Shown: positions 1-41,937 of the stretch, piece by piece
How the letters are laid out: each line of letters opens with the position of its first letter
Position numbering within the stretch: position 1 is the first letter of the stretch
Assembly (NCBI GenBank): GCA_964237255.1
Contig: CAXSIG010000001.1
Location: 1-41,937 of the forward strand
DNA length: 41,937 nucleotides
Direction: 5' to 3'
Source: an uncultured Bryobacteraceae bacterium
GTDB lineage: Bacteria > Acidobacteriota > Terriglobia > Bryobacterales > Bryobacteraceae
Translations under genes and position numbers: made by a program
The notes under the pieces: generated by a model
Told to the model about the DNA's origin: nothing
The model's database searches: none
The model's input: the letters and a program-made list of their open reading frames with translations, nothing else

Positions 1-15
1 TCCCGTCGCCCGGTC

Positions 16-14899: not shown

Positions 14900-16850
14900 T
14901 AGCGAACAAGGAACTTCAACTCCTTTTCAACGAACGAAACCTTTTCGGGGCTTCCCGGAATTTCGCTCGAACGTCCTCTATTGCCCAAAACAGTTCTTTA
15001 CCGTCGTAATCCCCCACTCCTCCGTTAACTGTATTCGCCTCGTTGCGTACATGCTTCGAAAGACCCTTGGTTGGGTTGATGAATCAGGAGAGCCGGTGCG
15101 GGAACAGCACACGGTCTCTTACCGGGAACTTGAAACAACAGCCGGCGTCTCCCATAGCAGGCTTCAAGAAGCGATTGAAGAAGCTCTCAAAGGAAAGTTC
15201 ATCCGCTGCACACAAGCAGCAAAAATTCAGAGCCAAGGCGTTCGTTCGCAGAGTGCTGCTTACGAACTTTCCTGGGATGAAGACCGCTATACGGATGGGC
15301 TTGAAGACTTTCACGGGTTCTACCTTCAACCGACGTACCTCGACCGCGAGGACCAGACAAGAATCGGGAGAAAGAACATCCCGAACATTTTCTTTGACTA
15401 TCTGATTCGAAATGAAAGCCGAAGAGTAATCCGGGTGGTCGGAACGCTTCTTTGGTACAGCATCGATTGGGGAAAGGGCGGGGAGCGGAAAGTTAGCGTT
15501 AGGAAAGCATTAAGAGACCTCGTTGAGCTAACGCACCTTGAACGCTCAAACGTCGTCCGGGCGCTTAATGAAGCGGAAAAGAAAGGCTACGTTGAGCGAA
15601 TCGAGAGAGGCGTCTTTGACCTCTCAGGGAAAAAACAAAGTAGCGCTACCGTTTACGGAATTCAGTGGACTAGCGAATACACCTATACCTACGACGGGCT
15701 TCCGGTCGAGATTGCAGAACGCTCCCAAAAAGCCACACAGCCTAATTTAGTCAACGCTCCCAAAAAGCCACACGGCAGTTTTTCCGGAACGCTCCCAAAA
15801 AGCTTCACGGAAAATGAGGCTGAACGCTCCCAAAAGGCCACACGGAACGCTCCCAAAAAGCCACACGAAGAACGCTCCCAAAAAGCCACTATAAGAATTA
15901 CTAAAAATACTAACTCTAAAACTCTTAACAGCAACAGCACTGAAGACTCCCCTGACCCGGAAACCGCTGCTGCTGTTTTAGAGCTTGTTGAGATTCTCTT
16001 TGAAGCAGGCTTCTTGAAAGCGGAAACCCCGGCAATTATCGCTGAAGCAACGGCTGCCGGGTCCCCTTCAGGCCAAACGGCAAAACAGGTAATACTTTCC
16101 CAAGTGGAGCTACTTCCAAGCCGAACTGCTTCTAAGAGTAAGCTCGGACTACTTCGATCCGCGATCAAAGGAAATTGGCCCGCTCCTGAGGGTATTAAAA
16201 AAACTAAAGACGTCTTTAGTTCTCCCGGAAAGTACTTTGCTGCAAGCTTTTACGCCGGCTATCACGGGAACTTGGATGCCCCGATAAGTGACCCTTCAGA
16301 GCAGGATTCGTCCGCGGGACAAACCTTTCTTGAAAAGCTTAAGACCGGTGAGCCTAGCGTAGAGAATGCCGGAGCGCTCGGTCGAGAGTTTGGAGCTTTT
16401 GTGGCAAAGAAGCACAGCGAAAAGCGGCAGAGCTTCCCTGCCCTAGTTCCTGCAATCCGTCAGTTTGGAGACGAGTTTTTTAGAAGACTAAAATCTGGTC
16501 TTGAAGAGAAGTTTCACTCTGAAGTTTCAAAAGCTCGCTCGCTTCACGTTGAAAAGTCTACCGGTGCTTACCAGGAATACCTCGAGAAAATTTTCAGCAG
16601 ACATGAGCATGAAAACAGCTTGCTGTTTCAAGAATTCTTTGCTGAAGAGGAACAATCGTTAGAGCCCATTCGAAAGAACCGCTTCGGACTTAATGTTGAG
16701 GCGGCGGTAAGAAAGTTCACGTCGCGAGAAAACCGACTTCAGCGCTTTGAAACATTCATTCGCATTTCAGGCTTCGCTAACGACGTGCTTGATTTCTGGG
16801 CTTGGGATCAGAAGCTGAACGAAGAACCATTTAATCAGGAAGAACTATGA
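14883..16850 (+). CDS. putative plasmid replication initiator (655 aa) containing internal iterons
   Basis: It sits between the RHH gene and parA, with ATGA-type overlaps. The N-terminal region is winged-helix-like. Six DNA iterons are embedded in a low-complexity linker (ERSQKAT/NAPKKPH repeats). Confidence 0.55.
   Translation: MEKQPNSEQGTSTPFQRTKPFRGFPEFRSNVLYCPKQFFTVVIPHSSVNCIRLVAYMLRKTLGWVDESGEPVREQHTVSYRELETTAGVSHSRLQEAIEEALKGKFIRCTQAAKIQSQGVRSQSAAYELSWDEDRYTDGLEDFHGFYLQPTYLDREDQTRIGRKNIPNIFFDYLIRNESRRVIRVVGTLLWYSIDWGKGGERKVSVRKALRDLVELTHLERSNVVRALNEAEKKGYVERIERGVFDLSGKKQSSATVYGIQWTSEYTYTYDGLPVEIAERSQKATQPNLVNAPKKPHGSFSGTLPKSFTENEAERSQKATRNAPKKPHEERSQKATIRITKNTNSKTLNSNSTEDSPDPETAAAVLELVEILFEAGFLKAETPAIIAEATAAGSPSGQTAKQVILSQVELLPSRTASKSKLGLLRSAIKGNWPAPEGIKKTKDVFSSPGKYFAASFYAGYHGNLDAPISDPSEQDSSAGQTFLEKLKTGEPSVENAGALGREFGAFVAKKHSEKRQSFPALVPAIRQFGDEFFRRLKSGLEEKFHSEVSKARSLHVEKSTGAYQEYLEKIFSRHEHENSLLFQEFFAEEEQSLEPIRKNRFGLNVEAAVRKFTSRENRLQRFETFIRISGFANDVLDFWAWDQKLNEEPFNQEEL
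15717..15890 (+). repeat. six direct repeats of ~21 bp (iterons), gaacgctcccaaaaagccacac
   Basis: Copies start at 15717, 15752, 15787, 15822, 15845 and 15870. Spacing is 35,35,35,23,25 bp. Confidence 0.8.
16202..16221. promoter_or_regulatory. parS-like palindrome, copy 4 (perfect 20 bp, inside rep)
   Basis: aactaaagacgtctttagtt. Confidence 0.5.
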
Positions 16851-17626: not shown

Positions 17627-18483
17627 GCGAGAACACTGCACCAAAGAACGAAGAAAGAGTTTCGCGGCTGGGGCTCGTTAAGAGCGGAGCCGCTTCAAAC
17701 ATCTCATTAAAAATGCCACGGAGAGGTAAGGTGACGGTTGATTTAGAAGCAATTGTTCCAGACCCAAGAAACGAGCGAAAAGCCTTTCGCGGAATTGACG
17801 AACTTGCAGCCTCGATTGCCAAAGTCGGTATTGTAGAACCGCCGACCGTTGTTCCTATGGATGACGGCCGCTACATGCTTACTACCGGGGAGAGACGGTG
17901 GAGGGCTGCAAAACAAGCGGGCCTAAAACAGATATCAGTCATTATCGGTGATCAGGAAGAGGAGAAAACTCGCCGCGTAAAGAGCCTCGTAAGTAACGTC
18001 CAGCGAGAAAATCTCAGCGCCCTTGAACTGTCCCAGGCCCTTCAGGAGATGAAGGAGGAGAACGGGGACATCAAAACAAACCGGGATCTCGCGGCTTTGG
18101 TTGGAAAAACCGAGCAGTGGGTAGGGCAGATTCTAAAACTTCTAAGCCTTCCTGAAGATATTCAGAATGAGATCCGCGGGGCGAGTATCGTCATTCCTTA
18201 CGAATCCGTTCTTCAGGTCGCACGGGCTGATGACGAGGCATCCCAAAGGGAACTTCTAAAGGAGGTTCTCTCGGGTGCAAGCGTTAGAGCTGTTCGGGAA
18301 CAAGCAAGGAGTTCAAAACCGGCCGCGAAAGGGGCAGGGAAGGGGAGTATCAATTCTACTCAAAAGATTGCAACGTCCAAAGGCTGGGTGATCATTCACT
18401 GCCAAAAGAAAAATGCGAAGAAGGAAGACTACGTCCTCTCGCTTACAGAGGCGCTGAAGGCTGCCCGGAAGCTTGAGGCCTAA
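17623..18483 (+). CDS. parB: ParB-type partition protein
   Basis: The ParB/Srx box is LTTGERRWRAAKQAGL, followed by an HTH region. Confidence 0.85.
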   Translation: MSENTAPKNEERVSRLGLVKSGAASNISLKMPRRGKVTVDLEAIVPDPRNERKAFRGIDELAASIAKVGIVEPPTVVPMDDGRYMLTTGERRWRAAKQAGLKQISVIIGDQEEEKTRRVKSLVSNVQRENLSALELSQALQEMKEENGDIKTNRDLAALVGKTEQWVGQILKLLSLPEDIQNEIRGASIVIPYESVLQVARADDEASQRELLKEVLSGASVRAVREQARSSKPAAKGAGKGSINSTQKIATSKGWVIIHCQKKNAKKEDYVLSLTEALKAARKLEA

Positions 18484-18503
18484 ACTAAAGACGTCTTTAG
18501 TTT
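18482..18503. promoter_or_regulatory. parS-like palindrome, copy 5 (22 bp, at the parB stop codon)
   Basis: aaactaaagacgtctttagttt. Confidence 0.5.
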
Positions 18504-22840: not shown

Positions 22841-24502
22841 TTAGTCGTCGGAATCCTGTCGTAGACCACCATTAACTTCTTGGAACAGTAGCGGCGGCCC
22901 GTCGTCCTCTCCTAAGTCTTCAAAGAGCGCCTGGATGGAGGCAACCTGCTTGTACCAATCCTCATCTCGGACAAGGGTGAAGTTGTGCGGAAGAATGTCG
23001 CTAGACTCTTCAGCCGCTGGAGTCGATGCGACTACAGGGTGCCTCCAATAGTCACCACCGGGAATCGCATCCCAAGTGGGTAGGGGAGTAGAGTCTCTCC
23101 TAAGGTACTCAGTATGTGGGACCGGCCAGGCAAGGCGAGTGTGATAGGCGAAGTCGTCGGGGCCTAGATCTTTTAGCCACGGGTTTCCCTTGCCAGGAAA
23201 CGGCTTTGGTTCGGTGAACCCCTTCCCCCGCTCGACATAAACGTAGCACTCGCGTTCCGAAGGCGAAGTGAAAAAGAACTTCACCCGCGTGTTCGTCATG
23301 ATTGCCGGTGCAAGATCAAAACCAGTGGCGGTCTTAAGATCGGTCAGACTTTGATTTGCCAGAATGGCGCTGATGCCAAACGAACGAGCATCTTGAAGAA
23401 TACCTTGCAAGTTCTCGCCGGCAACCCGTTGAAGCTCGTCAATTACAAGTACGATGCGTCGTCGATCGGTCGGGTGGTTTTTCTTCCAGTCCTGCGCTGC
23501 AACTCGTAGGTTGAACAGAACGAGCTTTGCAATCTCACCAACGCTGATTGATTCAATTGCTGCTGGAAGCCAGAAGTAAGCGACTTGGCGCTCCCTAATC
23601 ACGTCGGCCATGAAGATAATACTTTCCGTGTTCGAAAGGTGCTCTTCGACACTGGTGAAGAGCTGCCGGTATTCCGTAAGCATCTCGATTACGGAGAGCA
23701 GTTCAAAGGCGTCGGCCTTAGCCTTTGAGTCCGATGTCCCTCTCAGGGCCTCTTTCAACTCGTTATGCAAATCGTCAAAGGAATTGATCGGTGTATCCCG
23801 TTTTAGCGTTTTAGAAAGAATGCTGCGGCTTCGCTCCGTGTAGTAGCTTCGTCCGTAACCTTTGCCGTGGTTTAGACTGAGCGCGTCCATGACGAGCTGG
23901 CAGAGCTGGGCCACGGTTCTGGACTTCCGGTCAAAACCGCGAAACGGATTGAAGCGGTACGTCGGCGCGTCTTTTTCCGTTGTGAAGAACTTGAATTTCT
24001 GTCCTCGGGCTTCGGCCTCTTTTTTCACTGTATGAAAGAGTGCAGCGTCTCCCTTGAGATCTAAAACCACAAGAGGATACGGCTCGGGCAGGGAAGGGCT
24101 GGTGGTCTGCCCGCCGCGCATGAGCTGCATGAGAAGGGACATGATTCCAAGACTGGTCTTTCCGGCGCCGCTTGGACCGACGATGTAGCAGTGCTCCGAG
24201 AGAATGTCCTCATGAAGGAGAAGTGTCGCTGGCTTTGTTTCCTCCCAAGCTCGGCGGTCAATTACGTTGTGGTAGTCGATTGCGTCAGCAAAGTTTGGAG
24301 TTTTTACGCCGACTGCTCGGGGAGCGCGAAAAAGATTCTTGTGGGTTTCCCATCCAATAAAAAGATGCTGTCCCCAAAAGTGCTTTTCTACTCCGGCTTG
24401 GTCGACCAGTCCTGGGTTGCGGCGAACAAACTCCACCCAGTGGTTCCACCACTGAGGAAGATCTTCTTGCCGGGGCGGGGAGACGATCTCGGGATGCTTC
24501 AT
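22841..24502 (-). CDS. type IV coupling protein-like ATPase (TraD/TraG/VirD4 C-terminal type); no TM segment seen
   Basis: Walker A is IVGPSGAGKTSLG and Walker B is IVLVIDELQR. A downstream ARSFGISAILANQSLTDL motif is typical of the TraG-D_C family. Confidence 0.7.
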   Translation of the reverse strand: MKHPEIVSPPRQEDLPQWWNHWVEFVRRNPGLVDQAGVEKHFWGQHLFIGWETHKNLFRAPRAVGVKTPNFADAIDYHNVIDRRAWEETKPATLLLHEDILSEHCYIVGPSGAGKTSLGIMSLLMQLMRGGQTTSPSLPEPYPLVVLDLKGDAALFHTVKKEAEARGQKFKFFTTEKDAPTYRFNPFRGFDRKSRTVAQLCQLVMDALSLNHGKGYGRSYYTERSRSILSKTLKRDTPINSFDDLHNELKEALRGTSDSKAKADAFELLSVIEMLTEYRQLFTSVEEHLSNTESIIFMADVIRERQVAYFWLPAAIESISVGEIAKLVLFNLRVAAQDWKKNHPTDRRRIVLVIDELQRVAGENLQGILQDARSFGISAILANQSLTDLKTATGFDLAPAIMTNTRVKFFFTSPSERECYVYVERGKGFTEPKPFPGKGNPWLKDLGPDDFAYHTRLAWPVPHTEYLRRDSTPLPTWDAIPGGDYWRHPVVASTPAAEESSDILPHNFTLVRDEDWYKQVASIQALFEDLGEDDGPPLLFQEVNGGLRQDSDD

Positions 24503-25182: not shown

Positions 25183-25824
25183 TCACCAGACCTCATAGGG
25201 GAGCTTCTTCTCATTGCAGTATGCGTGAAACAGAAGCAGTTTCGCCTTTGAGTAGGCTCCCCCAAACTCAACGACGCGCTCCGGCCCGGCTGAGCTCCGG
25301 AGCATAACGTCTGGAAGGCGCTCGAACTTCTCTCGCTTCCGTTCCTGTTTAATCCGTTCTTCAAAGACCCATCCCGACAGAAGTTCTGGGGCGCGGCGGC
25401 GGTACAAAAGATACACCGCTGCCATGTGTATGTCGTGAGTCCTTTCGATTTCCCGAGGCGGCCGTCCGCCGTGTCCCCCAAATCGATTCATCGCAATTCT
25501 TGTCGCAGAGACACATCCCGTGATCACGGGATGCTGGTTCCACCTGGCCTGAAGGGTGTAGGAGGAAGAGCCAAGGTCAGGTTGCGGGTCTCCGGGAGTC
25601 CAGTCGATGACCGGAGCAATCATCTCGATTTCCGGATGAGCAGGAGCCCGCTTAATTTCAACTAGGTTCTCGGCCGCTAGAATCTTGAGTCTGTCGCCTA
25701 CGTTCTGGACTCCGTTTTTGGAATCCGGCCACCAGGTCCGGGCGATTTGTGCGATGGAGAAAACCCGGACGTGCTCAGTCAACGCACGGAGGATCTGAAG
25801 GTCTCTGGAAGTTAGATCCGTCAT
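25183..25824 (-). CDS. replication-relaxation family protein
   Basis: The N-terminus LTSRDLQILRALTEHVRVFSIAQIARTWW is typical of that family. Confidence 0.6.
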   Translation of the reverse strand: MTDLTSRDLQILRALTEHVRVFSIAQIARTWWPDSKNGVQNVGDRLKILAAENLVEIKRAPAHPEIEMIAPVIDWTPGDPQPDLGSSSYTLQARWNQHPVITGCVSATRIAMNRFGGHGGRPPREIERTHDIHMAAVYLLYRRRAPELLSGWVFEERIKQERKREKFERLPDVMLRSSAGPERVVEFGGAYSKAKLLLFHAYCNEKKLPYEVW

Positions 25825-26056
25825 GGAAGTTGATGAAAAACGAGCTTGCGGACGGGGTCTGTCGACCTAATCCAGACCATAAAAGCCCGCATCAAAGTTG
25901 ATTGTAAACCATTGAAGGATAAGGTAATTCGGGGAATAAAGTGGCACAGAACCCCAGGACGCCTAGGAGCAAGGCAATAGCCCGAGCCCTTGTTTTCGTA
26001 TGAAGCAGGGAGGGACGTATTGGCGGTCCTCTAATGTCACCCGGTAATAGGGAACC

Positions 26057-26198
26057 GGGGGTGCAAGGATGCACCCCGCGAAAACCCGAAGGCTGCCGCG
26101 ATGGCAGCCTGAGGACAGGAAGCCCGCGCGCCGCATCACCAATGGCCGTGACGGCCATTGCGGCGCGCAATACCGGGAGGCCCCCAGGATGGGGGCCA
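26057..26198. repeat. structured repeat family A, partial copy 1 (core only)
   Basis: It aligns to 26730-26872 and 28136-28278. Its hairpins are ggggtgca-agga-tgcacccc, ctgccg-cga-tggcag, and gcgcgccgc...aatggcc-gtgac-ggccatt-gcggcgcgc. Confidence 0.8.
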
Positions 26199-26475
26199 CT
26201 ACTCACGGCTTAGTCTGCTGATACCACTCCCGGACTTTGGCTAGTTCCGCGCGGGGGCGAGCGTGAGCGAGCCCCATTAGGGAGGCTCACCTGGTACGCC
26301 AGTACCGGGTGAGGGGTCGCGACCCCTCCTGCACCTTGCCCTAGCAAGGTCAGGAGCAGCCCGAGCCCTAGCTCGGGCATTGCCGTCCAGGGCAGTCACG
26401 CGCCTAGCGTGACAGATAGAGCTTTTTGGGTTGCGTCCAGCAACACAGAAAAGCGGGAGAGCCGGACGCCAAAGG

Positions 26476-26906
26476 CGGCAAGAAAATGGGGCGGGGGAGC
26501 GATTCGCCAGTTGTGGGTGGGAGAGGACTTGCAGCTTTTCCGGCTGGTCTTCTTCCGGATGCTATCGTCTCGAAGAGCGAGCATCCGGAAGAAACCAGTC
26601 AAGCCGGGGGTACCCCCTGGTCGCAGGAAGTTGCGCTCCGTTCAGGAGCCGCAACTGACGAGACTTGGGGGTGGCTTGAAGGAAAAGCTGTCCACTAAAG
26701 GGCGGTGGCGAAAGAGCCGGGGGGCGGCGCGGGATGCGTGATGCATCCCGTCGAAAACCCGAAGGCTGCCGTGACGGCAGACTGAGGACAGGAAGGCCCG
26801 CGCGCCGCATCACCAATGGCCGTGATGGCCATTGCGGCGCGCAATACCGGGAGGCCCCCCGGATGGGGGCCGCGCTAGCTGTTACAGAGAACTCCGGAAC
26901 CAGGTG
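26476..26906. repeat. structured repeat family A, full copy 2 (431 bp)
   Basis: Near-identical to 27883-28312, with one G indel near the start. It contains a 14-bp perfect stem at 26550-26563/26580-26593 and at least 6 further hairpins. Confidence 0.9.
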
Positions 26907-27646
26907 CTAACTTCCCTCAACACTTTTTGAAGGTCGTCAATCTCCGAGGTGTAAAACCAGTTGGCGGTTTCTCTGGAATCCGGAACTGTCATCCGAAGAG
27001 AGAAAAACGGCTCTACGTTAGCCGGTGTAGAGATATAAGCTCTGATAGTTCCACTTTCGAATACCTTTGCCAGGTCATTTGGAGCAAACTCTCGAAGGTC
27101 AAAACTCATCGGCTGAGGGTTCGGGAGTAGTTCGCTAACGAGTGGTCCTTCTTCTAAATTCCAGACAACGGAGGTAATCCTCTCGATGTCTGAAGCTTGA
27201 AAGAGGTAACCCCGTTTCCATCCATCACGGAATTTTATCCAGCGCCAGAATTGAAATCCATATTCGGTGGAATTCGAGAAGCGCAACACATTAGTGTAGA
27301 CTCGCTCCTTTTGGAGCCTCCCTATACAAAACGCCTTCAAAGTTTTTGCCGTTGGAACCATCTCTTCTGCTCTTGCTATAGAGTTCTGGCCCGGATTCAG
27401 TAAAGCTTTTTCAACCGAAACTTCTCTGTTTCCACCCTTTTTTAGCCAGCGCTCGACGCGTTGAATGTCTTGAAAGATGTGATTCGACTGTTCTCCGGTA
27501 GGCCGGTTCCGATAGTCCAGGGACTCTTCTGGCCAGAGATAGTCGAGGATCGTCGACAGGGATTCTCTGACTTCAAGGGGGAGCGATTCCCGAAAGTTAG
27601 TTGGTGTTCCAGACCTTCTGGTGTTTCTTGTACTTCGCTTGTTCAT
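26882..27646 (-). CDS. hypothetical protein (254 aa)
   Basis: ATG 27646 is preceded by ggaga; the ORF track extends to 27745. The last 8 codons lie inside repeat A copy 2. Confidence 0.6.
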   Translation of the reverse strand: MNKRSTRNTRRSGTPTNFRESLPLEVRESLSTILDYLWPEESLDYRNRPTGEQSNHIFQDIQRVERWLKKGGNREVSVEKALLNPGQNSIARAEEMVPTAKTLKAFCIGRLQKERVYTNVLRFSNSTEYGFQFWRWIKFRDGWKRGYLFQASDIERITSVVWNLEEGPLVSELLPNPQPMSFDLREFAPNDLAKVFESGTIRAYISTPANVEPFFSLRMTVPDSRETANWFYTSEIDDLQKVLREVSTWFRSSL

Positions 27647-27882
27647 GTTTTTCTCCGTTAGTGGTGCAAAAAGCGTTGCGTTAATTCGCAATGCTTTTTG
27701 GCGAGGCCTCGCCAGTAAGAGCGGGGTGTGAGCGGTCAAGGCCAATTCGTCGGGAGGGGGATCACCCGGTTTGCAGGCGCAGCCGAAAATCGGGGATACC
27801 CGACGAATTGCCCGTAGGGCTTGGCCTTGACGGCGAGAGGGGCAGAGCCCCTGAGACTAAAGAGTTCTAATCGAGCGAAGCT

Positions 27883-28312
27883 CGGCAAGAAAATGGGGCG
27901 GGGAGCGATTCGCCAGTTGTGGGTGGGAGAGGACTTGCAGCTTTTCCGGCTGGTCTTCTTCCGGATGCTATCGTCTCGAAGAGCGAGCATCCGGAAGAAA
28001 CCAGTCAAGCCGGGGGTACCCCCTGGTCGCAGGAAGTTGCGCTCCGTTCAGGAGCCGCAACTGACGAGACTTGGGGGTGGCTTGAAGGAAAAGCTGTCCA
28101 CTAAAGGGCGGTGGCGAAAGAGCCGGGGGGCGGCGCGGGATGCGTGATGCATCCCGTCGAAAACCCGAAGGCTGCCGTGACGGCAGACTGAGGACAGGAA
28201 GGCCCGCGCGCCGCATCACCAATGGCCGTGATGGCCATTGCGGCGCGCAATACCGGGAGGCCCCCCGGATGGGGGCCGCGCTAGCTGTTACAGAGAACTC
28301 CGGAACCAGGTG
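27883..28312. repeat. structured repeat family A, full copy 3 (430 bp)
   Basis: See copy 2; the offset is 1406 bp. Confidence 0.9.
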
Positions 28313-28549
28313 TTACTTCTCAGAAGTGGGCTCTGCCCCCTTCCGAACCATCCCCTGGGATTTAACGCATTAGGCCAAAGCTGGCAGTTTGATCGTGAAT
28401 GAGTCAGAATGCTGTTCAGCCGTCACGGAAGATAGGGCAATGCAGGGATGCAACCCGAGCGCCGGGACGGGCCGAAGCTGGCGGAGCGGCCACAGTCGCT
28501 CCTCTGGTTTTATCCGCGATTTCCGGGCGCGCCCTTAGCTCTTCTAAAA

Positions 28550-28993
28550 TCAGTATTCCTCTGGAAGAAGAATCGTTGTCGCACTTCGGTCGGATTCGGT
28601 AATCACCCAAAGTTTTTTACCGGCCTTCGTTCTAAATGCTGAGAGGATTCGTAAACCTTGTTCAACGGAGTAGTCGTTTTCGTTCCAGTCGTCGAAAGAG
28701 ATTTCCCCCCAGTCACCGGTTTGGTGCCGGTATATGAATTCAGACGCTTCTTGGTAACAACGTTCCATCGCTGCCGTAGCACCTTCGGTGCAGACAATTC
28801 GTCCGGTGTCGAAAAGCGTTTTGTTAAACCAGCCGCTTGCCCGGAGCACCAGCACCGAATGGAAGATGTGGTCTTTTCTTTCCTCCGGCGAAAGCACTGC
28901 GTAATTGTCGCTCTCTGCTCCGAGGTAATCTAGCATCCGTCTTATGGCTGTGAATTCTTCTTCGCTAAAAAGTGGTTGAACAATCGTTACCAT
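28550..28993 (-). CDS. conserved plasmid/ICE-associated protein (GDWG...TTILLPEEY type)
   Basis: The C-terminal half reads FIYRHQTGDWGEISFDDWNENDYSVEQGLRILSAF....KLWVITESDRSATTILLPEEY. I recognise this as a widespread plasmid-borne family of unknown function, often found near ardC. Confidence 0.65.
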   Translation of the reverse strand: MVTIVQPLFSEEEFTAIRRMLDYLGAESDNYAVLSPEERKDHIFHSVLVLRASGWFNKTLFDTGRIVCTEGATAAMERCYQEASEFIYRHQTGDWGEISFDDWNENDYSVEQGLRILSAFRTKAGKKLWVITESDRSATTILLPEEY

Positions 28994-29078
28994 GTGTTTT
29001 CTCTAAGTGGCAGGGCTACACCCGGCCGTCGTTTTTAATCGCAAAGCGGTAATTGCCTTTTTGCAATTACCGGCTAGG

Positions 29079-29373
29079 CCCACGCCGATGAGTGGGGGAG
29101 GCAAGGGCACAGGCCGGAGTAGCCGGAGGGGAATCACCCACTCTTGAAGCGTGAGCGGAAAGGGCGAAGCGAAAGCGGAGGTCTGCACAAGCGGCTGAAT
29201 GGCCGAGCGGAAGATTGGGGATACCGGCTACGAAGCCGTAGCAGAGCGAAGGGAAGCCTTGACCGCGCCAGGGGCAAAGCCCCTTAGTCTTTGGGGGCGT
29301 TGCGGGGTCCTCCCCGCTAGAAGGGGAAGCGTAAGACGCGAAGCGGCTGAAGCGCGGGGAAGGCTTTCCCCGC
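29079..29373. repeat. structured repeat family B, copy 1 (~295 bp)
   Basis: About 95% identical by eye to 32481-32779. The plus strand is purine-rich, with hairpins ggggc-aaa-gcccc, cgggg-tcct-ccccg and ggggaa-ggct-ttcccc. Confidence 0.85.
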
Positions 29374-29389
29374 TATTTAATACATCTCG

Positions 29390-31501
29390 CTACAAACCGA
29401 ATTTAGTGCTCGACACTGTCTTTGCAAGTTCGTAGTAAAAACCGTAAGCGCGAAGACCAACGATCTCTCCATTTTCAATATTGTCTGCCGGCTCAATCCG
29501 GAGTGTTTGCCCTTTGGATAAATAAATATACCGACCATCAATTGTCTTGAGGGAAGGCTGAGACGGCTCGACTAACTGGATAACTCCGGATGGTAAACGG
29601 ACCTCAATCCGAATGGCATCAAGGACGGTTACCTCGTCTTCCTCTTCTTTCAGCAGGATTTGCTTTGTATTTTTTGGAAGAGAAATTCTGTCCCATCGCC
29701 TCAATCGTTGAGTCAGAATGCCGGTCAGGACTGGACCCTGTCTTTTCCAGGACCCAAGATTTTTAGATCGCGTGTAAACAAACGGGCAACTCCCAGCAGG
29801 GATTCCATACCAGAGCGCTACATTGCCGACACTAGTGCGTGGACGAATCCGTAAAGAAACCCCGCTAATTCGCGCCGATTCCACCTCTATCGAAGGGCCG
29901 TAAATATGTTCTGTTTTCCAAACTGTGTATTCGTGCTCAACCCACTCCGCCCGATTCACGGCGGCTTTGTGAAGATCGGACGCATGTACAATGAGGTGAT
30001 TTAAAGGTTCTAGCTCCACATCTTCGGCCTGTAAAGGAGCATCTGCTTCACGGCGTGCCGCAGCGATACGCTCCTTCCATTCTGTTTCCGCCGCCGAAGT
30101 TTGCTCACCGTATCGAAGAATAATCTGTAACGGAAGAACCGCCTTTTCACCGCGCTTGAGAAGGCCAATATCAAACGGAATAACGCTTACATCCGCATTT
30201 TTTAGAAGGGTCTCATCTTGGCCTCGCTCTCGAAGCGGACCTACGGTGGTTCGAGCGTTGAATGAACTTACGTAAAGTGCTTCTTTACCAAAATTCTCGA
30301 TCACCATTACTCTCAAGGCTAGCGAAGGAAGATCAAGGGATATATCGGATAAGCTGTTGCATTTAGGCCCTTCGAAGTAAGTTGCCGTTCCTAGGTTTGA
30401 AGGTACTCCGGTTTCCGTAAGCTTCCTCCAAAACGCTGCCAGTTCTGATGGATAAAGGTTGAGCTGATTAAGGTCTGAAGCCTCAATTGGTTTGACGAAG
30501 TTGAGTTCTGTAATTTTGCCTTCATACCTTGTGCTACTTCCAAGCCATCTCCATCGTGAAGATGGAAGCATGAGCGCATTACGTTCGTTGAACGCAATGC
30601 TTCTGCCAAGTCCTTCACCCGCAGTGGCAATGAAGATACGTTTGTCCTGAACCAAACGCGCAAGATCTGGATGTTCCGTGTCTCTCGTTCGGTCGTATAC
30701 AGTCCAAAAGGGCGAGTCACGCTCACGGAGAGGAAACCGGCTCGCGTATTCAGAGGCTAAGTCTGTAACGGCGTTCCAGACGTCGTTTCGTACCAGATAA
30801 TATCCAGGGCCGAACACCCTGTTATATGGTTCTGGCAGAGGATGCTGCATCAAGAACGTCTGTAAAGCCGCCCCCTGTAAATCAAAATAGTGGACCTGAT
30901 ATGGAACTTCCGGCGATTCAAGAACAAGTCGTATTGGACTTAGCTTTAAAAGTGAGAAGGAAACGGGTTGCGTATTGCTGGCACCCAACCAGCTAGCACG
31001 CACCGAAAGGCGTCCTGAAACTATTTGTAATGACGATAACGTATCGAAAACAAACGTCCCTTTATCGCTCAAGGTATGTTCAACGACTTTGTTGTCCTGA
31101 AGAACTTCAACAAGAGCATGGTCAATTGGCTCTTGTGTAGAGAACTGGACAATGCCCTTTATAGTTACGGGAGCTGTGGTCGCACGAACGTAGGCCAATG
31201 GAATGAAAATAGCGAAGGCACTAAGCGCTGCGTACCTACAGGAGCGTTGGTCAACAAGTATCTTCTGAGCGGCAGTGATAACACGGCCAAGAAAGAGCTG
31301 AGGGGCTTTATCCAGGTCCTCCTTTCGTGCAATAAGGAGGGCGGCGGTGGCAAAAGCAGTTGTAAAAGCTGCTATCAAACCAGCGGTGGGCGAGGCAAGC
31401 CAAACGATCATTAAAACGTCTAGCGGGAACATCACCAAAAAGAGCATCTGCCATCGACGGTGGTTCATAGCGGCCTCTAAGGGTAAACCATTCTCTAACA
31501 T
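29390..31501 (-). CDS. large membrane-anchored protein of unknown function (703 aa)
   Basis: Long clean ORF with two N-terminal hydrophobic segments. Confidence 0.6.
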   Translation of the reverse strand: MLENGLPLEAAMNHRRWQMLFLVMFPLDVLMIVWLASPTAGLIAAFTTAFATAALLIARKEDLDKAPQLFLGRVITAAQKILVDQRSCRYAALSAFAIFIPLAYVRATTAPVTIKGIVQFSTQEPIDHALVEVLQDNKVVEHTLSDKGTFVFDTLSSLQIVSGRLSVRASWLGASNTQPVSFSLLKLSPIRLVLESPEVPYQVHYFDLQGAALQTFLMQHPLPEPYNRVFGPGYYLVRNDVWNAVTDLASEYASRFPLRERDSPFWTVYDRTRDTEHPDLARLVQDKRIFIATAGEGLGRSIAFNERNALMLPSSRWRWLGSSTRYEGKITELNFVKPIEASDLNQLNLYPSELAAFWRKLTETGVPSNLGTATYFEGPKCNSLSDISLDLPSLALRVMVIENFGKEALYVSSFNARTTVGPLRERGQDETLLKNADVSVIPFDIGLLKRGEKAVLPLQIILRYGEQTSAAETEWKERIAAARREADAPLQAEDVELEPLNHLIVHASDLHKAAVNRAEWVEHEYTVWKTEHIYGPSIEVESARISGVSLRIRPRTSVGNVALWYGIPAGSCPFVYTRSKNLGSWKRQGPVLTGILTQRLRRWDRISLPKNTKQILLKEEEDEVTVLDAIRIEVRLPSGVIQLVEPSQPSLKTIDGRYIYLSKGQTLRIEPADNIENGEIVGLRAYGFYYELAKTVSSTKFGL

Positions 31502-31525
31502 CCTCGGAGAAAAGAGTGGTGCTGT

Positions 31526-32432
31526 CTAAGCCGCGAATTCCGCTCCTGTATTCAAACCGGTGGGAGAAAAAGTATGGAGCCAATCAAGGGCAGCTTGGGC
31601 TTTTGAAGCAGCGGTAAAGATTGCCCGTGAATCGTTTCGAAGAACTTTCAGCCAAGTCTGAACGTAAGCAGCATGGTCTGGGCGGGGTTCGTTACAAAGC
31701 CCAAGGTCAGCGCAAAGAAACGCGGCGCCAAGTTCCGCAATCAGTTCTTCAGCCGCATACGCTTCAGAACCAAAGCGGTTTTTAAGGTCTCGGTCGAGGC
31801 GGTGTTTTGCGGCCGTGAAGTGAATCAGCTCATGGGAGAGAGTTTCGTAAAAAGCGGTAGCTCCTTTGAAGATCTGGAACTGCGGCATCTGAATGTAATC
31901 GCCGACGGCGTTGTAAAACGCTCGGTCTCCGCCGTAGCGAACATCCGGGTTTACACAGGAAATGAAATCGTCCGCGGCCTTAATCCGTTCGACGGCCGGC
32001 AGCTCGGGCATTTCCGGCAGAGAAAAGCCGTCAACCTGGTCGGCGTTAAAAACATTGTAGCCGCGGGCGATTGGGCCAAGCCGCGTTGTTTGCTCCTCTT
32101 CGTCTTCCCGGTCTTCTTTCTCGTTAGTCTGATCTCTGAATTTCCAAAAGATCGATAAACGCTGACTTCTCGCCTTTTCGAACTTGTGCACCAAGCTCTT
32201 GCCACTGTGCGTATGTTGCCCAGATTCCGGAGTGATAAGCTTTCTCCGCTGCCGTTGCCCAGAGGGCCAACACGTTAACGCCTCGATATGCTTTCCGGGT
32301 TACGGCATTCATCGGAATGGTCTGGCTTCGATGCCACGGAAGTTCCCATTTGTCTGCTCCCTGTTCGATGGCCTTAATAATCTGGTCGGTGATTCGTTCG
32401 TAAATGTCTAGTCGCTCTTCTTTGGTTTTCAT
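31526..32432 (-). pseudogene. ardC: ArdC-like antirestriction protein (ssDNA-binding N-domain plus zincin protease domain) with an apparent frameshift near 32160-32175
   Basis: The N-domain, in one frame, reads ITDQIIKAIEQGADKWELPWH...YRGVNVLALW...QVRKGEKSAF. The expected continuation SIFWKF...HELIHFT is in another frame (ORFs 32124..32543 and 31526..32194 overlap). Confidence 0.75.
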
Positions 32433-32480
32433 TGTGTTCGCCTTTTGGTCGTGCGGGTTGTTTTTAAAAAACAACCCCCG

Positions 32481-32779
32481 AGCCCATCGGCGGCGAGATT
32501 GGGGAGGCAAGGGCAATGGCCGGAGTAGCCGGAGGGGAATCACCCACCCTTGAAGCGTGAGCGGAAAGGGCGAAGCGAAGCGGAGGTCTGCACAAGCGGC
32601 TGAATGGCCGCGCGGAAGATTGGGGATACCGGCTACGAAGCCGTAGCAGAGCGAAGGGAAGCCTTGACCGCGCCAGGGGCAAAGCCCCTTAGTCTTTGGG
32701 GGCGTTGCGGGGTCCTCCCCGCTAGAAGGGGAAGCGTAAGACGCGGGAGCGGCTGAAGCGGGGGGAAGGCTTTCCCCGC
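32481..32779. repeat. structured repeat family B, copy 2 (~299 bp)
   Basis: See copy 1. It lies directly upstream of the ardC start. Confidence 0.85.
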
Positions 32780-32871
32780 CTTACGCTTCTATTCACCATG
32801 GACAAGCAGCTCTCGAAGCATCCGGATCTACGGTTCGGTTCTCTCGCACTTTCGATTTATCCGTAGCTCTT

Positions 32872-33186
32872 CTACCGACTCCGGGAACGCTTTTGCTGAG
32901 AAATAGGAGACGAAGGAAGATGTTTTGGTCTGTCAGCGAGAAGTTGTTCAACACGCTGAACAAGTTCTGAAGCCCTCATTTTCATTACGTCTGCAAGGCC
33001 CATTACCGTTCGGAGGGACGGGCTTTTAACCCCTCGTTCCAACTGGCTGATGTAGGTCGGGTGAAATCCGCTTTGAAAGGCTAGGTCTTCTTGCGTCAGC
33101 CCGGCCTTTGTCCGAAATTCCCGCAGCGCCGGTCCAAAAGGGACATCGACTGATTCGACGGATTCTCGGCTGCGTCGTGATTGCAC
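32872..33186 (-). CDS. XRE-family HTH transcriptional regulator
   Basis: AGLTQEDLAFQSGFHPTYISQLERGVKSPSL. Confidence 0.8.
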   Translation of the reverse strand: MQSRRSRESVESVDVPFGPALREFRTKAGLTQEDLAFQSGFHPTYISQLERGVKSPSLRTVMGLADVMKMRASELVQRVEQLLADRPKHLPSSPISQQKRSRSR

Positions 33187-33429
33187 GTGCAGACCGATGG
33201 TGATACGCTCGATACTTTAGTACCAGAGACAATTGTCTTAGTCGCGGGTGCTGGGGAAAGGAGAGACGCATGATTCGGTCCATCGTTAAAGGTGGCGGCG
33301 GCGGTGGTGGAGGCGGTTAAACAGTAGGCGTGTTCCAGATGGAAGTTGTCCAGAGTTCCCAAGTTTTTGATGTAGTAACCAGCCCGGGGCTCGGTACAGC
33401 GCTTAAACGTATCGGGTCCCGGCTTTTAA

Positions 33430-34311
33430 GTGAATGCTGAGCGCCCTGACAATCTCGCCTCATGGGCCAGTATCCTTGGCAGCGTAGTCACGGTTCTTGG
33501 TCTCCTTCAGTCCCAACTCTGGATTACGGTGTTCGGGTTAGCAGTTGTTGGGATTGCTGGTGGCACATTTCTCCTCCTCCAAAAAAACAAAAAGCGTCTT
33601 CTCCTCTCCGGATTTCAGATCGAAGGTCTGAACATAGACTCGTTGAATATTGCGAATTTGAGAAGACGTTTAAACCGAAGCCTCACTGTTCAACGTGCTT
33701 ACCACTTCGCCACAATTGATGGTTCAAATCTCTCCGTGGCCTGGCAGTATGAGGGATTCTGTCGCGTTAAAAGGGAGACTGTAACAGAGTTCAGCATCGA
33801 CGCCGAAAGTAACGTTCCCTTCGATCAGCTTGAGTGTTTTGCATTCGACTTGAAAGAAGATCCTCAGCGGACGCACCGCATTCGGCCGATCTTAGTTGGG
33901 AACGACGGCATCTCAAAGAAGATCGCTGTGCCGTTTTTGACGCCGCTTGTTCAGGACCAGCCGTTTGGAATTGTGCTGAACTGCGTTCTTCCTGGTTGCA
34001 TCGGAAAAGGAGTGCATTACTACACGTCGAGCCTTTCCTTTGAGCAGCAAACAATCCCAGAACTCACCGTTCACCTGGTCTTTGTGAATAGTCCGCCGAA
34101 GTGGTTACGGGTTTACGAATGCGGAACCGGCAAGGCAGTTCTTGCAAACGAACTTCGACCGACAAACGCCGACGGCAACACCTGGGAATACATCGACGAA
34201 GTCTTAAACCCTTCCGGCCAATCGGTCCGAGTCTATCTATACGACGCCGGGGACGAAGGTTTTCCGCGCCCGACAGCTATCCCTTTTAATCAGAAGAAGC
34301 GGTTGCAATAG
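33430..34311 (+). CDS. hypothetical membrane protein (293 aa)
   Basis: It has two N-terminal hydrophobic segments and a GTG start. Confidence 0.5.
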   Translation: MNAERPDNLASWASILGSVVTVLGLLQSQLWITVFGLAVVGIAGGTFLLLQKNKKRLLLSGFQIEGLNIDSLNIANLRRRLNRSLTVQRAYHFATIDGSNLSVAWQYEGFCRVKRETVTEFSIDAESNVPFDQLECFAFDLKEDPQRTHRIRPILVGNDGISKKIAVPFLTPLVQDQPFGIVLNCVLPGCIGKGVHYYTSSLSFEQQTIPELTVHLVFVNSPPKWLRVYECGTGKAVLANELRPTNADGNTWEYIDEVLNPSGQSVRVYLYDAGDEGFPRPTAIPFNQKKRLQ

Positions 34312-35121: not shown

Positions 35122-35793
35122 ATGTGCGGCCGGATTATCCAAAGGACCTCGAGAGGTCTCATCATTCAAGACCTTGGAATGGAAGACGACGGTCTGCCTG
35201 ATTCACCACCTCGGTATAACGTTCCACCGGCCAGTTCCATCATGGCTGTTCGCTCAAACTTCGAAGGCGGAAATGAAATCGTCAATCTCCGTTGGGGCCT
35301 CATTCCTTCCTGGGCGAAGGAGGAGAAGATCGGCTGGAAGATGATAAACGCGCGGGCAGAAACGCTTCAGGAGAAGCCGTCGTTTCAGGATGCTCTTAGA
35401 AAACGCCGGTGTGTAATTCCGGTTGACGGATTTTACGAATGGAAGAAAACGGCGGAGGGAAAAACTCCGTACTTCATTCGGACTGCTGACGAGAAGTTGT
35501 TCTATCTGGCGGGCCTTTGGGAGAGCTGGAAATCTCCAGGCGGGGAAACCATCGAATCATGCACGATCGTTACAACTTGCGCATTCGGCGAACTCCTCTC
35601 CCTCCACGACCGAATGCCGGTCATTATTTCTCGTGAGCAAATAGCTTTGTGGCTCGATGCAACGATCCAGAATGTCTTAGAGGTTGAGCCGCTACTTCTA
35701 GTGTTTCCTGCGGACGAAATGAAAGCAACTCTTGTCAGCACTCTTGTAAACAGCCCGAAAAACGATAGCGTGAAGTGCCTTGAAGCAGCCTGA
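35122..35793 (+). CDS. yedK: SOS-response-associated peptidase (SRAP, YedK/HMCES-like)
   Basis: The N-terminus is MCGR (catalytic Cys2). Further motifs are NARAETL..KPSF and CVIPVDGFYEW. Confidence 0.85.
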   Translation: MCGRIIQRTSRGLIIQDLGMEDDGLPDSPPRYNVPPASSIMAVRSNFEGGNEIVNLRWGLIPSWAKEEKIGWKMINARAETLQEKPSFQDALRKRRCVIPVDGFYEWKKTAEGKTPYFIRTADEKLFYLAGLWESWKSPGGETIESCTIVTTCAFGELLSLHDRMPVIISREQIALWLDATIQNVLEVEPLLLVFPADEMKATLVSTLVNSPKNDSVKCLEAA

Positions 35794-35872: not shown

Positions 35873-36072
35873 CGCGTAGGTATATATACCTACGCGGTCT
35901 TGGGACAAAGCCTGCATTGATGCCCTCCAACATGTTGACTTGTTTATCCGAACTCGGGACAACTCTCCTTGATCGTGCGTAGACATTGGTATATATACCA
36001 ATGTCTATGTAAGAATGGAACTGAGCTCTCAAACGGGGGCTTACGTTGGTATATATACGACGTAGCCCCCGT
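35873..36072. promoter_or_regulatory. three long palindromes sharing a GGTATATATAC(C) centre, upstream of abiEi
   Basis: The three lie at 35873-35896 (24 bp, perfect), 35980-36007 (28 bp, perfect) and 36033-36072 (imperfect). Confidence 0.6.
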
Positions 36073-36093
36073 GCTGGCGGGAAACAAGGGTTT

Positions 36094-36990
36094 ATGGCCG
36101 AATACCGAATTTCGAGAGCGGCGCGGGTTGCTGACGCAGAAAAAAAAATCGTTGACGCGCTGGATGCGACTGGCAAAAGAGTATTCAGCACCCAAGACCT
36201 TGTTAAGCTCTTTACTGAAAATCGTGAGGAGTGGTGGATCCTTGTGCCCGTTACGGCAAAAAAATTCATCAAGTATTTAGAAGATCACCTGAACTTGAAG
36301 AAGATCGTTCTTCAGGGCGAGACCCATACTCAGAAATTCCTCCGCTACCTCTGGAGAGACGTTTCACCGCTCGAAGTCGCGGGCGCAATCAGAGCAACTG
36401 CCTACCTGTGCCATTCAAGCGCTGTTTACATTCACGGCCTCACCGACCAACTTCCGCGGCGGTTATACGTTAACTACGAACAAAGCGTAAAGCCAAAGAG
36501 TGAGGGCGAGCTGCAACAGGCAAACCTGGACCGTGCATTTCGCGGCAAGCAGCGCCACTCAACTTTCGTCTTCGATTACGACGAGTATTCGATTGTTGTT
36601 CTTAGCGGGAAAAACACGAAGAATCTTGAAGTGCGCGTTCAGGCTTTGCCCGGAGGCGGATCGGTTCGAGTCACCGGCCTTGAAAGAACGCTCATCGATA
36701 TTACCGTTCGACCCACCTACGCAGGCGGTGTATTTCAGGTGCTTGAAGCGTTTCGAAGTGCGAAAGAACAAGCCTCGATTTCAACGCTTTTAGCGACCCT
36801 GAAAAAGCTCGACTACGTCTATCCCTATCACCAGGCGATCGGCTTCTACATGCAGCGGGCCGGGTATTCGGAAAAACAGTTTCAACGGTTAAAAGAGCTT
36901 GGAATGCAAGTAAAGTTTTACCTGGCCCATGACATGCGGGAAACCGAGTTTGATTCCACCTGGCAGCTATTCTTCCCAAAGGGAATGTAG
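36094..36990 (+). CDS. abiEi: AbiEi-like antitoxin/transcriptional regulator
   Basis: It has an N-terminal wHTH-like region. The C-terminal ...[17 protein letters not shown] pattern is typical of AbiEi. I place the start at ATG 36094; the ORF track gives 36046. Confidence 0.6.
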
Positions 36991-37821
36991 AGGCTCGATC
37001 TCTCGAAGAACAAACTCGAAGTAGAAGTCGAACTCCTGAAGGTCCTGCTGCACAGTTGCTTGAACGTTCGGCCAGTCGGCTCGATGAAAGTCCCGCTGTT
37101 CATCAAGGTTTCCGAGGATAAATAGTGGGACCTCTTTTGCATCAAAGATCAAGCGGACAAGCTCACGGCTCTCCGGCGAATCGAACGTAAATCCGGCTGT
37201 TGTGACGATGTTGTAGATATCGAGGAAATCTCGCGCTCTTGCCCGTTTTGTATTCCCGGTAGGAGCGTAGTATTCGGTCTGCTGACAGATTGCTCGTACT
37301 TTTTCCAGGGCAATCATTGCCGGCGGATAAACGTAAATCGTGTATGCATCAAGCTCGGCTCGGACTTTTCCTTGCGTGTACTCATGTTTGCTGAAATCGA
37401 CCGTGAAGATTCTTTTCTGGTCTGGCCCAATCACTACCGCTTCGCGGCCGAGCCGAACTCGGTCCGAGCCGTAGGAGCGGTGAAGGGCTTGATTAATCAG
37501 CTTGAACTGAAGCTCGTAGCCGCCCCACCAAGATTTGATCTCGTCTCTCATCACGGAGGGCTTGGGTACGAGCTTTATGTCAAAGGGTTTAAGCTGAACG
37601 GTTTCAAACCGGCGAACAAGCGCGTGCTCCATTCGCTGCCTGGTCTCTTCGATATCCTGAAAATCGTCTTCAAGAGAGAAATCCACGTCCAGGGAGAATC
37701 GATCGCCGATCCGATGGACCAGGCTCATCGCGTTTCCACCCTTCAGAACAAGCTGATCGAAGAAGATGTCGTCGCTGAAAAGCGCGGTTATGGTTAAAAT
37801 TCTGACTTCTTCGAAATTCAT
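36967..37821 (-). CDS. abiEii: AbiEii/AbiGii-family nucleotidyltransferase toxin
   Basis: [28 protein letters not shown] place the start at ATG 37821 (MNFEEV); the ORF track gives 37863. Confidence 0.75.
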
Positions 37822-38026
37822 CAGCAGGGAGCGAGATAAGGGTACCAAGCCCCTACATAGCATAGGAAAAGCTGGTTGAAAGGGCGTGCTGGTTCGGCGT
37901 GCGGAAAACGCAACGCAACGTTTCTGTCAGGCCACAGATTTCCTGGTCGAAACTTCATCCGGCGGCTCGACTCGGTTCCACGTATTCAAGAAACGCTCAA
38001 CGCCGTCAGCACGATATTGTGTCGTA

Positions 38027-41920: not shown

Positions 41921-41937
41921 GGACTGCGCGCCTCTAT

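Follow-up and report, generated by a model that had tools for sequence, protein, structure and literature searches.

Knowledge of the incoming strand in conjugation (its early transcription, priming and delayed conversion) rests almost entirely on the F-like, IncI and rolling-circle plasmids found in Proteobacteria and Firmicutes. The leading regions of F-like plasmids reportedly contain the single-strand promoters Frpo and ssi (single-strand initiation), described by Masai and Arai in 1997. Rolling-circle plasmids have single-strand origins (sso), such as ssoA and ssoU of pMV158, and an sso is also needed after conjugative entry. Frpo and ssi promoters have been described in the leading regions of F-like and IncI1 plasmids, and anti-defence genes of leading regions are reported to be found exclusively on the transferred (T) strand (Samuel et al. 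2024, PMC11541004). In F, the leading-region hairpin ssp2 blocks complementary-strand synthesis (Fraikin et al., bioRxiv 10.64898/2026.01.09.698686). Mini-hairpins are known from the G4 complementary-strand origin, RSF1010 ssiA and the N4 hairpin promoters (PMC13037366). Here we describe family A, a hairpin-rich non-coding repeat in contig CAXSIG010000001.1 of an uncultured member of Acidobacteriota. The contig, 41.9 kb of a mobile element, was analysed whole and is called the window below.

[quoted passage not shown] Its RNA counterpart, examined as r(GCGAAAGC), is far less stable and melts at 39 °C (PMC13037366). Family A shares several properties with Frpo and ssi. The repeats are several hundred nucleotides long, fold strongly, are non-coding and lie between small genes of a probable leading region. 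The genes point toward a putative origin of transfer (oriT), the T strand, which is assigned here by prediction, would be their template, and an anti-restriction gene is nearby.

We propose, tentatively and with slightly less than even confidence, that family A serves the entry of single-stranded DNA, with a part in priming, in protection or as a roadblock. It would be a composite non-coding module of the leading region in a conjugatively mobilisable element, either a plasmid or an integrative mobilisable element (IME). The conservation of structure is solid, and so is a strand-biased mini-hairpin signature; every biochemical activity of the repeats is inferred.

Copies, modules and conserved folds

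Family A has two full copies on the + strand, at 26476-26906 (copy 1) and 27883-28312 (copy 2). A global alignment upholds what a sequence-only reading of this DNA had reported, that the two are near-identical and differ by one indel. The sole difference is an extra G at 26493 of copy 1. The diverged third copy of that reading is also real. A covariance model of the core, the 3' part of the full copies, finds exactly three copies in the window, at 26044-26206, 26716-26882 and 28122-28288, and the match in copy 1 scores 153.5 bits. Copy 3 (26044-26206, + strand; 188.7 bits) contains the core only, with its four hairpins HP1-HP4. It is a diverged version of the last ~145 nt of the full copies and is 88-97% identical to their cores.

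Copy 1 contains an upstream module, U (26476-26725), the core (26726-26881), and the last eight codons and stop codon of a gene at 26882-27646 on the - strand. Identity between the full copies stops at 26906-26908, 27 nt (stop plus eight codons) into this gene. Copy 2 ends in a 27-nt remnant of the gene 3' end with no gene attached. A short degenerate stretch lies beyond the remnant, and no - strand open reading frame (ORF) ending at 28288 was seen. Copy 3 is also bordered by a gene end, a paralogous remnant of ~17 codons (...VREWYQQTKP*) at 26199-26250 on the - strand. This remnant was read off the sequence and compared with gene ends in the window and its relatives.

The gene at 26882-27646, between the two full copies, encodes an orphan protein of 254 aa. 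No family match was found in the family searches run, and the protein has one 47%-identical homologue, a 545-bp fragment. The core always lies next to the stop codon, at a distance of 0-10 nt, of a gene from a single small orphan family. The members encode 254 aa in the window and 170, 149 and 94 aa in three related loci (L002, L083 and L006, respectively), and they have related C-termini (...TWFRSSL*, ...QWFQSQ*, ...AWFQQHCSSPQ*). Because the core abuts the gene end and copies 2 and 3 hold gene remnants, the duplicated unit is the gene 3' end plus the structured DNA. This agrees with the earlier suggestion, and the same family ends at the core in L002, L083 and L006. Copies 1 and 2 would have arisen by a recent duplication of the gene 3' end, core and leader, followed by loss of most of one gene. 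Copy 3 would be an older relic of the same process. Two of the three core-linked genes in the window thus appear to have decayed since duplication.

The earlier view of a single ~430-bp element holds for the repeat and its hairpins but not for their unity, given that U and the core are separable in relatives. We split the 431-bp unit into these two parts because related contigs carry the modules differently. It is a composite of two modules with separate histories and a gene end, rather than a single element. Module U (~250 nt) is also found in L002, L004, L010 and L083, upstream of a gene in each, and in relatives it lies within or is joined to a second structured module, family B. U sits inside the family B module in L083 and L010; in the window its fusion partner is the core. 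Family B is represented on the + strand at 29095-29373, upstream of a gene for a 147-aa protein, with a second copy at 32501-32779 upstream of an ardC-like gene. These copies, and a further stretch at 27745-27800, are 96-99% identical. Directly left of copy 2, at 27745-27882 on the + strand, a B-like module is followed by the mini-hairpin CGAGC-GAA-GCTCG (27870-27882), and this order of modules recurs in L004, L010 and L083. Given that U lies within B in L083 and L010, families A and B are parts of one larger mosaic leader.

Contigs of three close relatives end inside module U (L002 at position 1, L004 at position 1, and a 26-kb contig of ERZ21986211). This suggests that U is repeated in those relatives too and breaks short-read assemblies.

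All of the hairpins listed in the sequence-only reading are present in the full copies. The centre of U is a long + strand hairpin at 26545-26598. Its perfect 14-bp arms (26550-26593) continue to a C-GAA-G apex, and U has an invariant block, AAGTCAAGCCGGGGGT. The long hairpin is kept in L002, L004, L010 and L083 with compensatory changes. Two further hairpins of U follow, GGGGGTACCCCC (26606-26617) and AGTTGCG-CTCC-GTTCA-GGAG-C-CGCAACT (26629-26656, + strand). When U is aligned with its relatives, a GCGAAGC mini-hairpin occupies the position of the latter in L002 and L010. The core hairpins, also given as on the + strand, are HP1 (26730-26750), HP2 (26766-26780, with an outward extension to about 26757-26789), HP3 (26800-26842) and HP4 (26853-26871), the last of which is 10 nt from the stop codon of the 254-aa gene. 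HP3 has an outer stem, GCGCGCCGC/GCGGCGCGC, and an inner stem, AATGGCC/GGCCATT. The core loops are GTGAT, TGA and CGGAT.

The folding of the repeat is far stronger than expected from its composition. For a 435-nt unit the predicted folding energy is -127.4 kcal/mol in the + strand (z = -9.0) and -118.8 kcal/mol in the - strand (z = -8.5), and none of 100 dinucleotide shuffles folds as well on either strand. Perfect hairpins of at least 7 bp number 44 in the whole 42-kb window (8-18 in mononucleotide shuffles), and 11 of the 44 lie in kb 26-27.

The differences among the cores preserve pairing. An A-T to G-C stem change in copy 3, the example singled out earlier, is correct on reading both copies: GGGATGC/GCATCCC in copy 1 is GGGGTGC(A)/(T)GCACCCC in copy 3. 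In an alignment fitted by the model, 99.3% of stem cells are paired over four distinct core sequences. None of 500 shuffles reaches this value, and slid controls are only 35-45% paired. Two pairs of HP1 covary, pair 4 (A-T/G-C) and pair 5 (T-A/C-G). This is the real number for HP1, as the fitted model shifted copy 1 by one register there and inflated the counts for helix 1. HP2 also has two covarying pairs, one found as U-A, G-C and A-U and an outer one as A-U and G-C. An unfitted MAFFT alignment has the inner helix of HP3 fully (100%) paired across five distinct sequences; in L083 and L006, two of its A-U pairs are replaced by C-G and one U-A pair by U·G. No variation occurs in HP4 or in the outer stem of HP3, which thus give no covariation evidence either way. 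With double-sided changes in HP1, HP2 and HP3, these hairpins are maintained by natural selection on structure, as the sequence-only reading had argued.

Core homologues detectable at the sequence level are confined to close relatives. L002/L003 have one full and one partial copy, and L083 and L006 have reduced versions of the core. A search for further copies in plasmids, as suggested earlier, gave no match in PLSDB (72,556 plasmids, including F-like and IncI) by megablast or blastn. Two exact/IUPAC patterns from the HP3 region found nothing in genome, metagenome (JGI) or viral (IMG/VR) collections. A looser 20-mer gave 51 genome matches, all due to chance according to the covariance model (best 15 bits), and no viral matches. 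Among 185,579 species genomes there were no true matches to the core, and a protein-anchored scan of viral contigs found nothing. Rfam gave no match for the whole window at the gathering score, and at E up to 1 the only match in 25800-29400 was a chance snoRNA match inside a gene; no known RNA family is thus represented.

The ORFs inside the repeats were considered as genes and rejected. The + ORF through the core runs in different frames in copies 1 and 3 and meets a stop after 10 codons in L002, and the modules that the 84-aa and ~110-aa ORFs run across lie apart in relatives. The earlier judgement that they are spurious stands.

Strand asymmetry and the predicted transfer polarity

Strand preference was measured over 19 loci, comprising 42.7 kb on the repeat-bearing side of a relaxase-like gene, all oriented like the + strand of the window. 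GCGAAGC occurs 42 times in the + orientation, where dinucleotide shuffles predict 7.1, and 5 times in the opposite one, where they predict 5.0 (p = 2e-8). Across the relaxase-like gene, on its far side, the motif is found 6 and 16 times, respectively. After de-duplication there are 38 versus 4 distinct contexts, with 15 loci leaning toward + and none toward the opposite strand. The motif often caps 4-8-bp stems of unrelated sequence (for example, at 189, 530 and 726 from the gene start in L013 and at 765 in L011). The bias spans elements whose homologues of the relaxase-like protein share only ~37-80% identity with that of the window.

Mismatches and loops show the same preference. Interior transition mismatches in stems that pair perfectly elsewhere comprise 26 G·T and 6 A·C (p = 5e-4), and the other side of the gene has 1 and 3. 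The commonest loop of stems of at least 5 bp is C-GAA-G in the + orientation, and C(GNA)G triloops are found 16 times in this orientation versus 3. Loops favoured by RNA are rare in the mRNA orientation, with two C(UUCG)G and one GNRA. Hairpin density is 1.95 per kb on the repeat side (0.30 in shuffles) and 0.57 per kb on the gene side (0.33). By the three signals of GCGAAGC, in-stem mismatches and triloops, the hairpins would be tuned to the + strand, the one predicted to be transferred. Family A on its own contributes few + strand signals: the C-GAA-G apex of the U hairpin, CGAGC-GAA-GCTCG beside copy 2, and several G·T pairs.

The candidate relaxase gene (25183-25824, - strand) encodes a highly conserved 213-aa protein, a very divergent putative member of the MOBC / Replic_Relax type with a winged helix-turn-helix (wHTH) and a C-terminal domain. 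PF13814 is matched by 7 of 28 aligned members of its family (best E = 2.5e-9). PF13814 corresponds to the MobC relaxase superfamily, whose usual partner is a VirD4 coupling protein (PMC5357655). A type IV coupling protein (T4CP) of the TrwB/VirD4 type is encoded two genes downstream (22841-24502, - strand), and the operon of the 213-aa MOBC-like protein, a 225-aa protein and the T4CP is conserved in relatives. The AlphaFold 2 (AF2) model of the 213-aa protein has a pLDDT of 93, and a PDB fold search finds neighbours for the wHTH domain only. A PDB sequence-profile search with the protein returned nothing, and tblastn against PLSDB gave no match. The T4CP homologues that carry a source name come from metagenome-assembled genomes of Bryobacterales/Bryobacteraceae and other Acidobacteria.

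Directly upstream of the relaxase-like gene, at 25839-25955, is a 74-76% conserved block with TAATCCAGACC and TTGATTGTAAAGCACTGA, and L002-L010 have an equivalent 120 nt. The block is probably the promoter/operator of the 213-225-T4CP operon.

An oriT-like site lies upstream of this operon, on the + strand at 26395-26460. It consists of the hairpin GTCACGC-N5-GCGTGAC and a block, ATAG(G)AGCTTTT.GGG...AAAGCGGG, and is kept in L002 (~1985-2045), L004 (~1130-1185) and L010 (~3316-3381). The pattern across close relatives is GTCACGC-N5/6-GCGTGAC, then ATAGGAGCTTTT.GGGT...AAAGCGGG. L011 has the stem GGCGCGC/GCGCGCC at the place equivalent to the hairpin. An inverted repeat 5' of the nick region would be the usual oriT geometry if the + strand is cut.

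An ardC-like anti-restriction gene (31526-32543, - strand) lies 5 kb beyond the oriT-like site. All genes from 26.9 to 33.2 kb point toward this site, as the leading genes of the F plasmid do. We take the strand rule for anti-defence genes in leading regions (PMC11541004) to mean that the T strand is the strand transcribed on entry. Because the relaxase candidate, the T4CP, the oriT-like hairpin, ardC and the gene directions agree, the repeats probably lie in the leading region, and the + strand of the window is probably the T strand. The relaxase function of the 213-aa protein, the position of oriT and its nick, and the identity of the transferred strand are all predictions from these features.

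The ardC-like gene is split. ArdcN (32124-32543; PF08401, E = 9e-33) and the metalloprotease domain MPTase-PolyVal (31526-32194; PF18818, E = 1.3e-49) are in different frames with a 71-nt overlap, which could be a frameshift, a pseudogene or a sequencing error. A 161-nt stretch coding for the ArdC N-terminus (32232-32392) is repeated with 94% identity at 40988-41148, near the right end of the contig.

Proposed entry function and alternative explanations

A single-stranded-DNA entry element could work as follows. Short G+C-rich hairpins would be selected to fold in the + strand, from which the small genes of the leading region are transcribed and which is predicted to be the T strand. When this strand enters single-stranded, the hairpin arrays would form at once. 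In the element family many arrays are capped by the highly stable d(GCGAAGC)-type mini-hairpin, and the arrays would resist coating by SSB and attack by nucleases. They may act as single-strand initiation sites, roadblock sites or both, setting where complementary-strand synthesis starts or pauses, and might also steer early transcription around the first genes to enter. A wider version of the proposal is possible, on balance doubtful. It holds that promoter-less T-strand hairpin arrays, many capped by d(GCGAAGC), form an undescribed leading-region "entry module" that marks the first DNA to enter, family-wide in MOBC-like elements of Acidobacteriota. Such arrays would exclude SSB and nucleases and place primers or pause synthesis, by a mechanism unlike that of the σ70 hairpin promoters in enterobacterial plasmids.

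Several observations weigh against an entry function. Relative to the oriT-like hairpin, copy 3 is found on the relaxase side, the one transferred last, where such a function makes less sense. The core loops are not of the GCGNAGC type, and the mini-hairpin signal comes mainly from neighbouring modules and relatives. The core comparison is a small sample of 4-5 distinct sequences from 3-4 lineages. The 213-aa protein of the window does not itself match PF13814, and the T-strand assignment follows from general rules rather than a mapped nick. The F-plasmid leading region, used as a control, has no asymmetry (G·T 4 vs A·C 3; GCGAAGC 3 vs 2); therefore the signature is neither validated on a known system nor generic to leading regions. 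Raw minimum free energy (MFE) was not used as evidence, although the + orientation is more stable in 15 of 20 loci, because the + strand is G-rich, which favours G·U, and the z-scores of the two strands are alike. The G·T excess over A·C would also arise from + strand RNA. Finally, in four lineages the core goes with the 3' end of a single gene family, which an element of the mRNA 3' end predicts equally; on the mRNA strand a 4-T run follows the extended HP2, and the block CGAAAACCCGA is invariant.

These last points belong to the main rival, which we consider unlikely. In this explanation, the core hairpins following the stop codon terminate transcription or shield the mRNA of the 254-aa family against 3' exonucleases, as REP-type stabilisers do, and the repeats are 3' untranslated regions of duplicated genes. 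The position of the core 0-10 nt past the stop in the window, L002, L083 and L006 fits well, and the gene remnants keep the link. The extended HP2 on the - strand is followed by GGGTTTTCG, invariant among the copies, and the fold of the - strand nearly equals that of the + strand (z = -8.5). However, a terminator scan found nothing in the cores. The T run is only 4 nt long, below the scan threshold; it follows the extended HP2 in the window and L002, an arrangement not kept in L083 and L006, where the run precedes a hairpin on the mRNA strand. In the mRNA a + strand G·T becomes an A·C mismatch, which affects the closing pairs of HP2 and HP3, the U·G of HP3 in L083 and L006, and the 26:6 tally. 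RNA-favoured loops are not enriched in the mRNA orientation, and four consecutive conserved hairpins exceed the needs of a terminator.

A single-strand promoter of the Frpo type is rather improbable. The long hairpin of U would mimic a duplex on the T strand, from which host RNA polymerase would transcribe the leftward genes. Copy 2 has a fitting position and orientation: the 254-aa gene, with the 237 nt that separate copy 2 upstream from it, is in what is probably the leading region, and the T strand would be its template. Repeated structured elements of ~300-430 nt also resemble the multiple Frpo/ssi copies of F-like and IncI leading regions, and TTGACT on the - strand (AAGTCAAGCC on +) is invariant in all five U modules. 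The sequences found 17 nt downstream of it (CGCTCT, GTTTTG, CGTTTT and GGTTTT) are nonetheless not -10-like. A scan of 25600-33500 found no σ70 -35/-10 pair with at least 9 of 12 matches inside any copy on either strand, and manual reading found no -10-like hexamer in the hairpin arms; the σ70-promoter reading was rejected for want of a hexamer pair in the copies. Moreover, between copy 1 and the oriT-like site there is no downstream gene, the repeat is a string of short hairpins instead of one long imperfect duplex, and it has no DNA similarity to any PLSDB plasmid.

It is likewise improbable that the repeats have no function of their own. They would then be by-products of gene duplication, decay and recombination where turnover is fast, with the conserved intergenic backbone serving as homology for the exchange of cargo genes. 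Points in favour are the gene remnants beside copies 2 and 3, the mosaic modules (U inside B in L083 and L010; the U-core fusion in the window), relatives' contigs that break inside modules, and a total of only three copies with none in 185,579 species genomes. Neutral decay would break stems, yet the substitutions in HP1-HP3 are compensated and 99-100% of cells are paired. The hairpin excess and strand asymmetries are family-wide as well, extending to relatives whose 213-aa homologue is ~37-42% identical.

A structured RNA transcribed from the + strand, antisense to the leading genes and acting as an antisense regulator or small RNA, is very unlikely. The covariation supports a folded single strand of + polarity, with G·U-compatible wobbles and five GNRA loops in this orientation. 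No promoter-like site was found on the + strand in or near the copies, however, and Rfam has no match even at E = 1. The dominant cap, the C-GAA-G of GCGAAGC, is a DNA-specific stabiliser that is weak in RNA (PMC13037366).

That family A is a mobile non-autonomous repeat, either a miniature inverted-repeat transposable element (MITE), a repetitive extragenic palindrome (REP) or bacterial interspersed mosaic element (BIME), or an integron attC-like site, is scarcely credible: it is repeated, palindrome-rich, intergenic and at gene 3' ends, and the element has a tyrosine recombinase gene (1139-2233), but this sole recombinase gene is 25 kb from the repeats, alignment of copies 1 and 2 shows no terminal inverted repeats (TIRs) or target duplications at the copy boundaries, the three copies cluster within 2.3 kb with none in genome, metagenome or viral collections, and the boundaries lack RYYYAAC/GTTRRRY core sites in a unit of 431 nt (57-141 nt for attC), so that membership of a known insertion sequence, MITE or REP family, raised earlier as a possible refutation, found no support.

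The mobile element and its relation to known systems

The window encodes an integrase, ParA/ParB, a Rep-like helix-turn-helix (HTH) protein and several defence/toxin genes in addition to the TrwB-type coupling protein. The palindrome AACTAAAG-ACGT-CTTTAGTT is found four times around rep/parAB, at 10326-10345 (where the centre is ACAT), 14564-14583, 16202-16221 and 18482-18503, and these copies are probably parS sites or operators. Positions 15715-15897 hold six direct repeats of iteron-like character (AACGCTCCCAAAAAGCCACAC...), mostly 35 nt apart. They lie inside a 655-aa ORF (14883-16850; MarR-type HTH, Rep-like), and in relatives a similarly long gene is called there. Among the cargo are a pentapeptide-repeat/TIR-domain protein (37886-39118), an AbiEi/AbiEii pair (36046-37863), a Swt1-like HEPN protein (12843-14651), a RhuM-family protein (8536-9591) and the SOS-response peptidase SRAP (35122-35793). 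The element is therefore rich in defence and toxin functions.

Palindromes that are A+T-richer, perfect or nearly so, with 10-14-bp arms, lie 20-90 nt upstream of the starts of leading-region genes (27667-27700, 29047-29072 and 32455-32477). Examples are CGGTAATTGC-CTTTTT-GCAATTACCG and GGGTTGTTTT-TAA-AAAACAACCC. They are operator-like, and related ones are found in L002, L004 and L083. A 40-nt terminal inverted repeat, CCTTAGCGTACGTAAATTTCCCTTTCTTGA[A/G]CTGTCCCCA, is located at 15-54 and 41882-41921, 14-16 nt from the contig ends. The two ends are 98% complementary and there is no obvious target duplication, which suggests either that the entire 41.9-kb element has TIRs at its ends or that the repeat is an assembly artefact.

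The near-identical repeats of family A explain why assemblies of these elements break at this point, and they show how cargo genes of a leading region are duplicated and lost. The GCGAAGC and G·T strand biases constitute a computational signature that could predict transfer polarity or leading regions in uncultured elements with no known oriT.

Among known structures, the repeats resemble REP/BIME elements and intrinsic terminators in having G+C-rich palindromes directly past stop codons that recur at several genes. They differ in that wobbles and loops favour the non-mRNA strand, a proper U tract is lacking, and, unlike REP/BIME, they are not dispersed in chromosomes. The primase-type ssi of phage G4 oric and RSF1010 ssiA (PMC13037366) and the sso are closer, as orientation-specific hairpin clusters on the strand that is single-stranded, a signal found here at the level of the family. 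The mini-hairpin caps are of the GCGNAGC/CCGAAGG type that excludes SSB. Unlike the G4 ssi, the repeats have no conserved start triplet (CTG after HP2 in the window, CCG in L002), and no cognate primase was identified for them. Unlike ssoA, they lack CS-6 as a conserved feature, since TAGCGT is found once, in the oriT-like hairpin of the window, and is not conserved there (CTCGCGT in L002, CAGCGT in L004).

A stable stem-loop on the T strand could also stall complementary-strand synthesis as the ssp2 roadblock of F does, and would prolong the single-stranded window over the first genes. In F, ssp2 is a promoter as well; the repeats have no detectable promoter, and stalling is purely hypothetical here. 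For Frpo, position and orientation fit, but membership fails on a defining feature, the promoter hexamers. In Frpo/ssi the -35, -10 and UP elements lie in a long duplex-mimicking stem, whereas the repeats lack these elements, are strings of short G+C-rich hairpins and have no sequence similarity to PLSDB plasmids. The host also belongs to Acidobacteriota, and the putative relaxase is MOBC-like instead of MOBF or MOBP. If family A does act on the transferred strand, leading regions with structured single-stranded-DNA elements would be general to conjugation and extend to a soil phylum that has been little studied. Such elements could then be built from different parts: σ70 promoters within long stems for Frpo and ssi, and mini-hairpin-capped stems with no recognisable σ70 promoter here.

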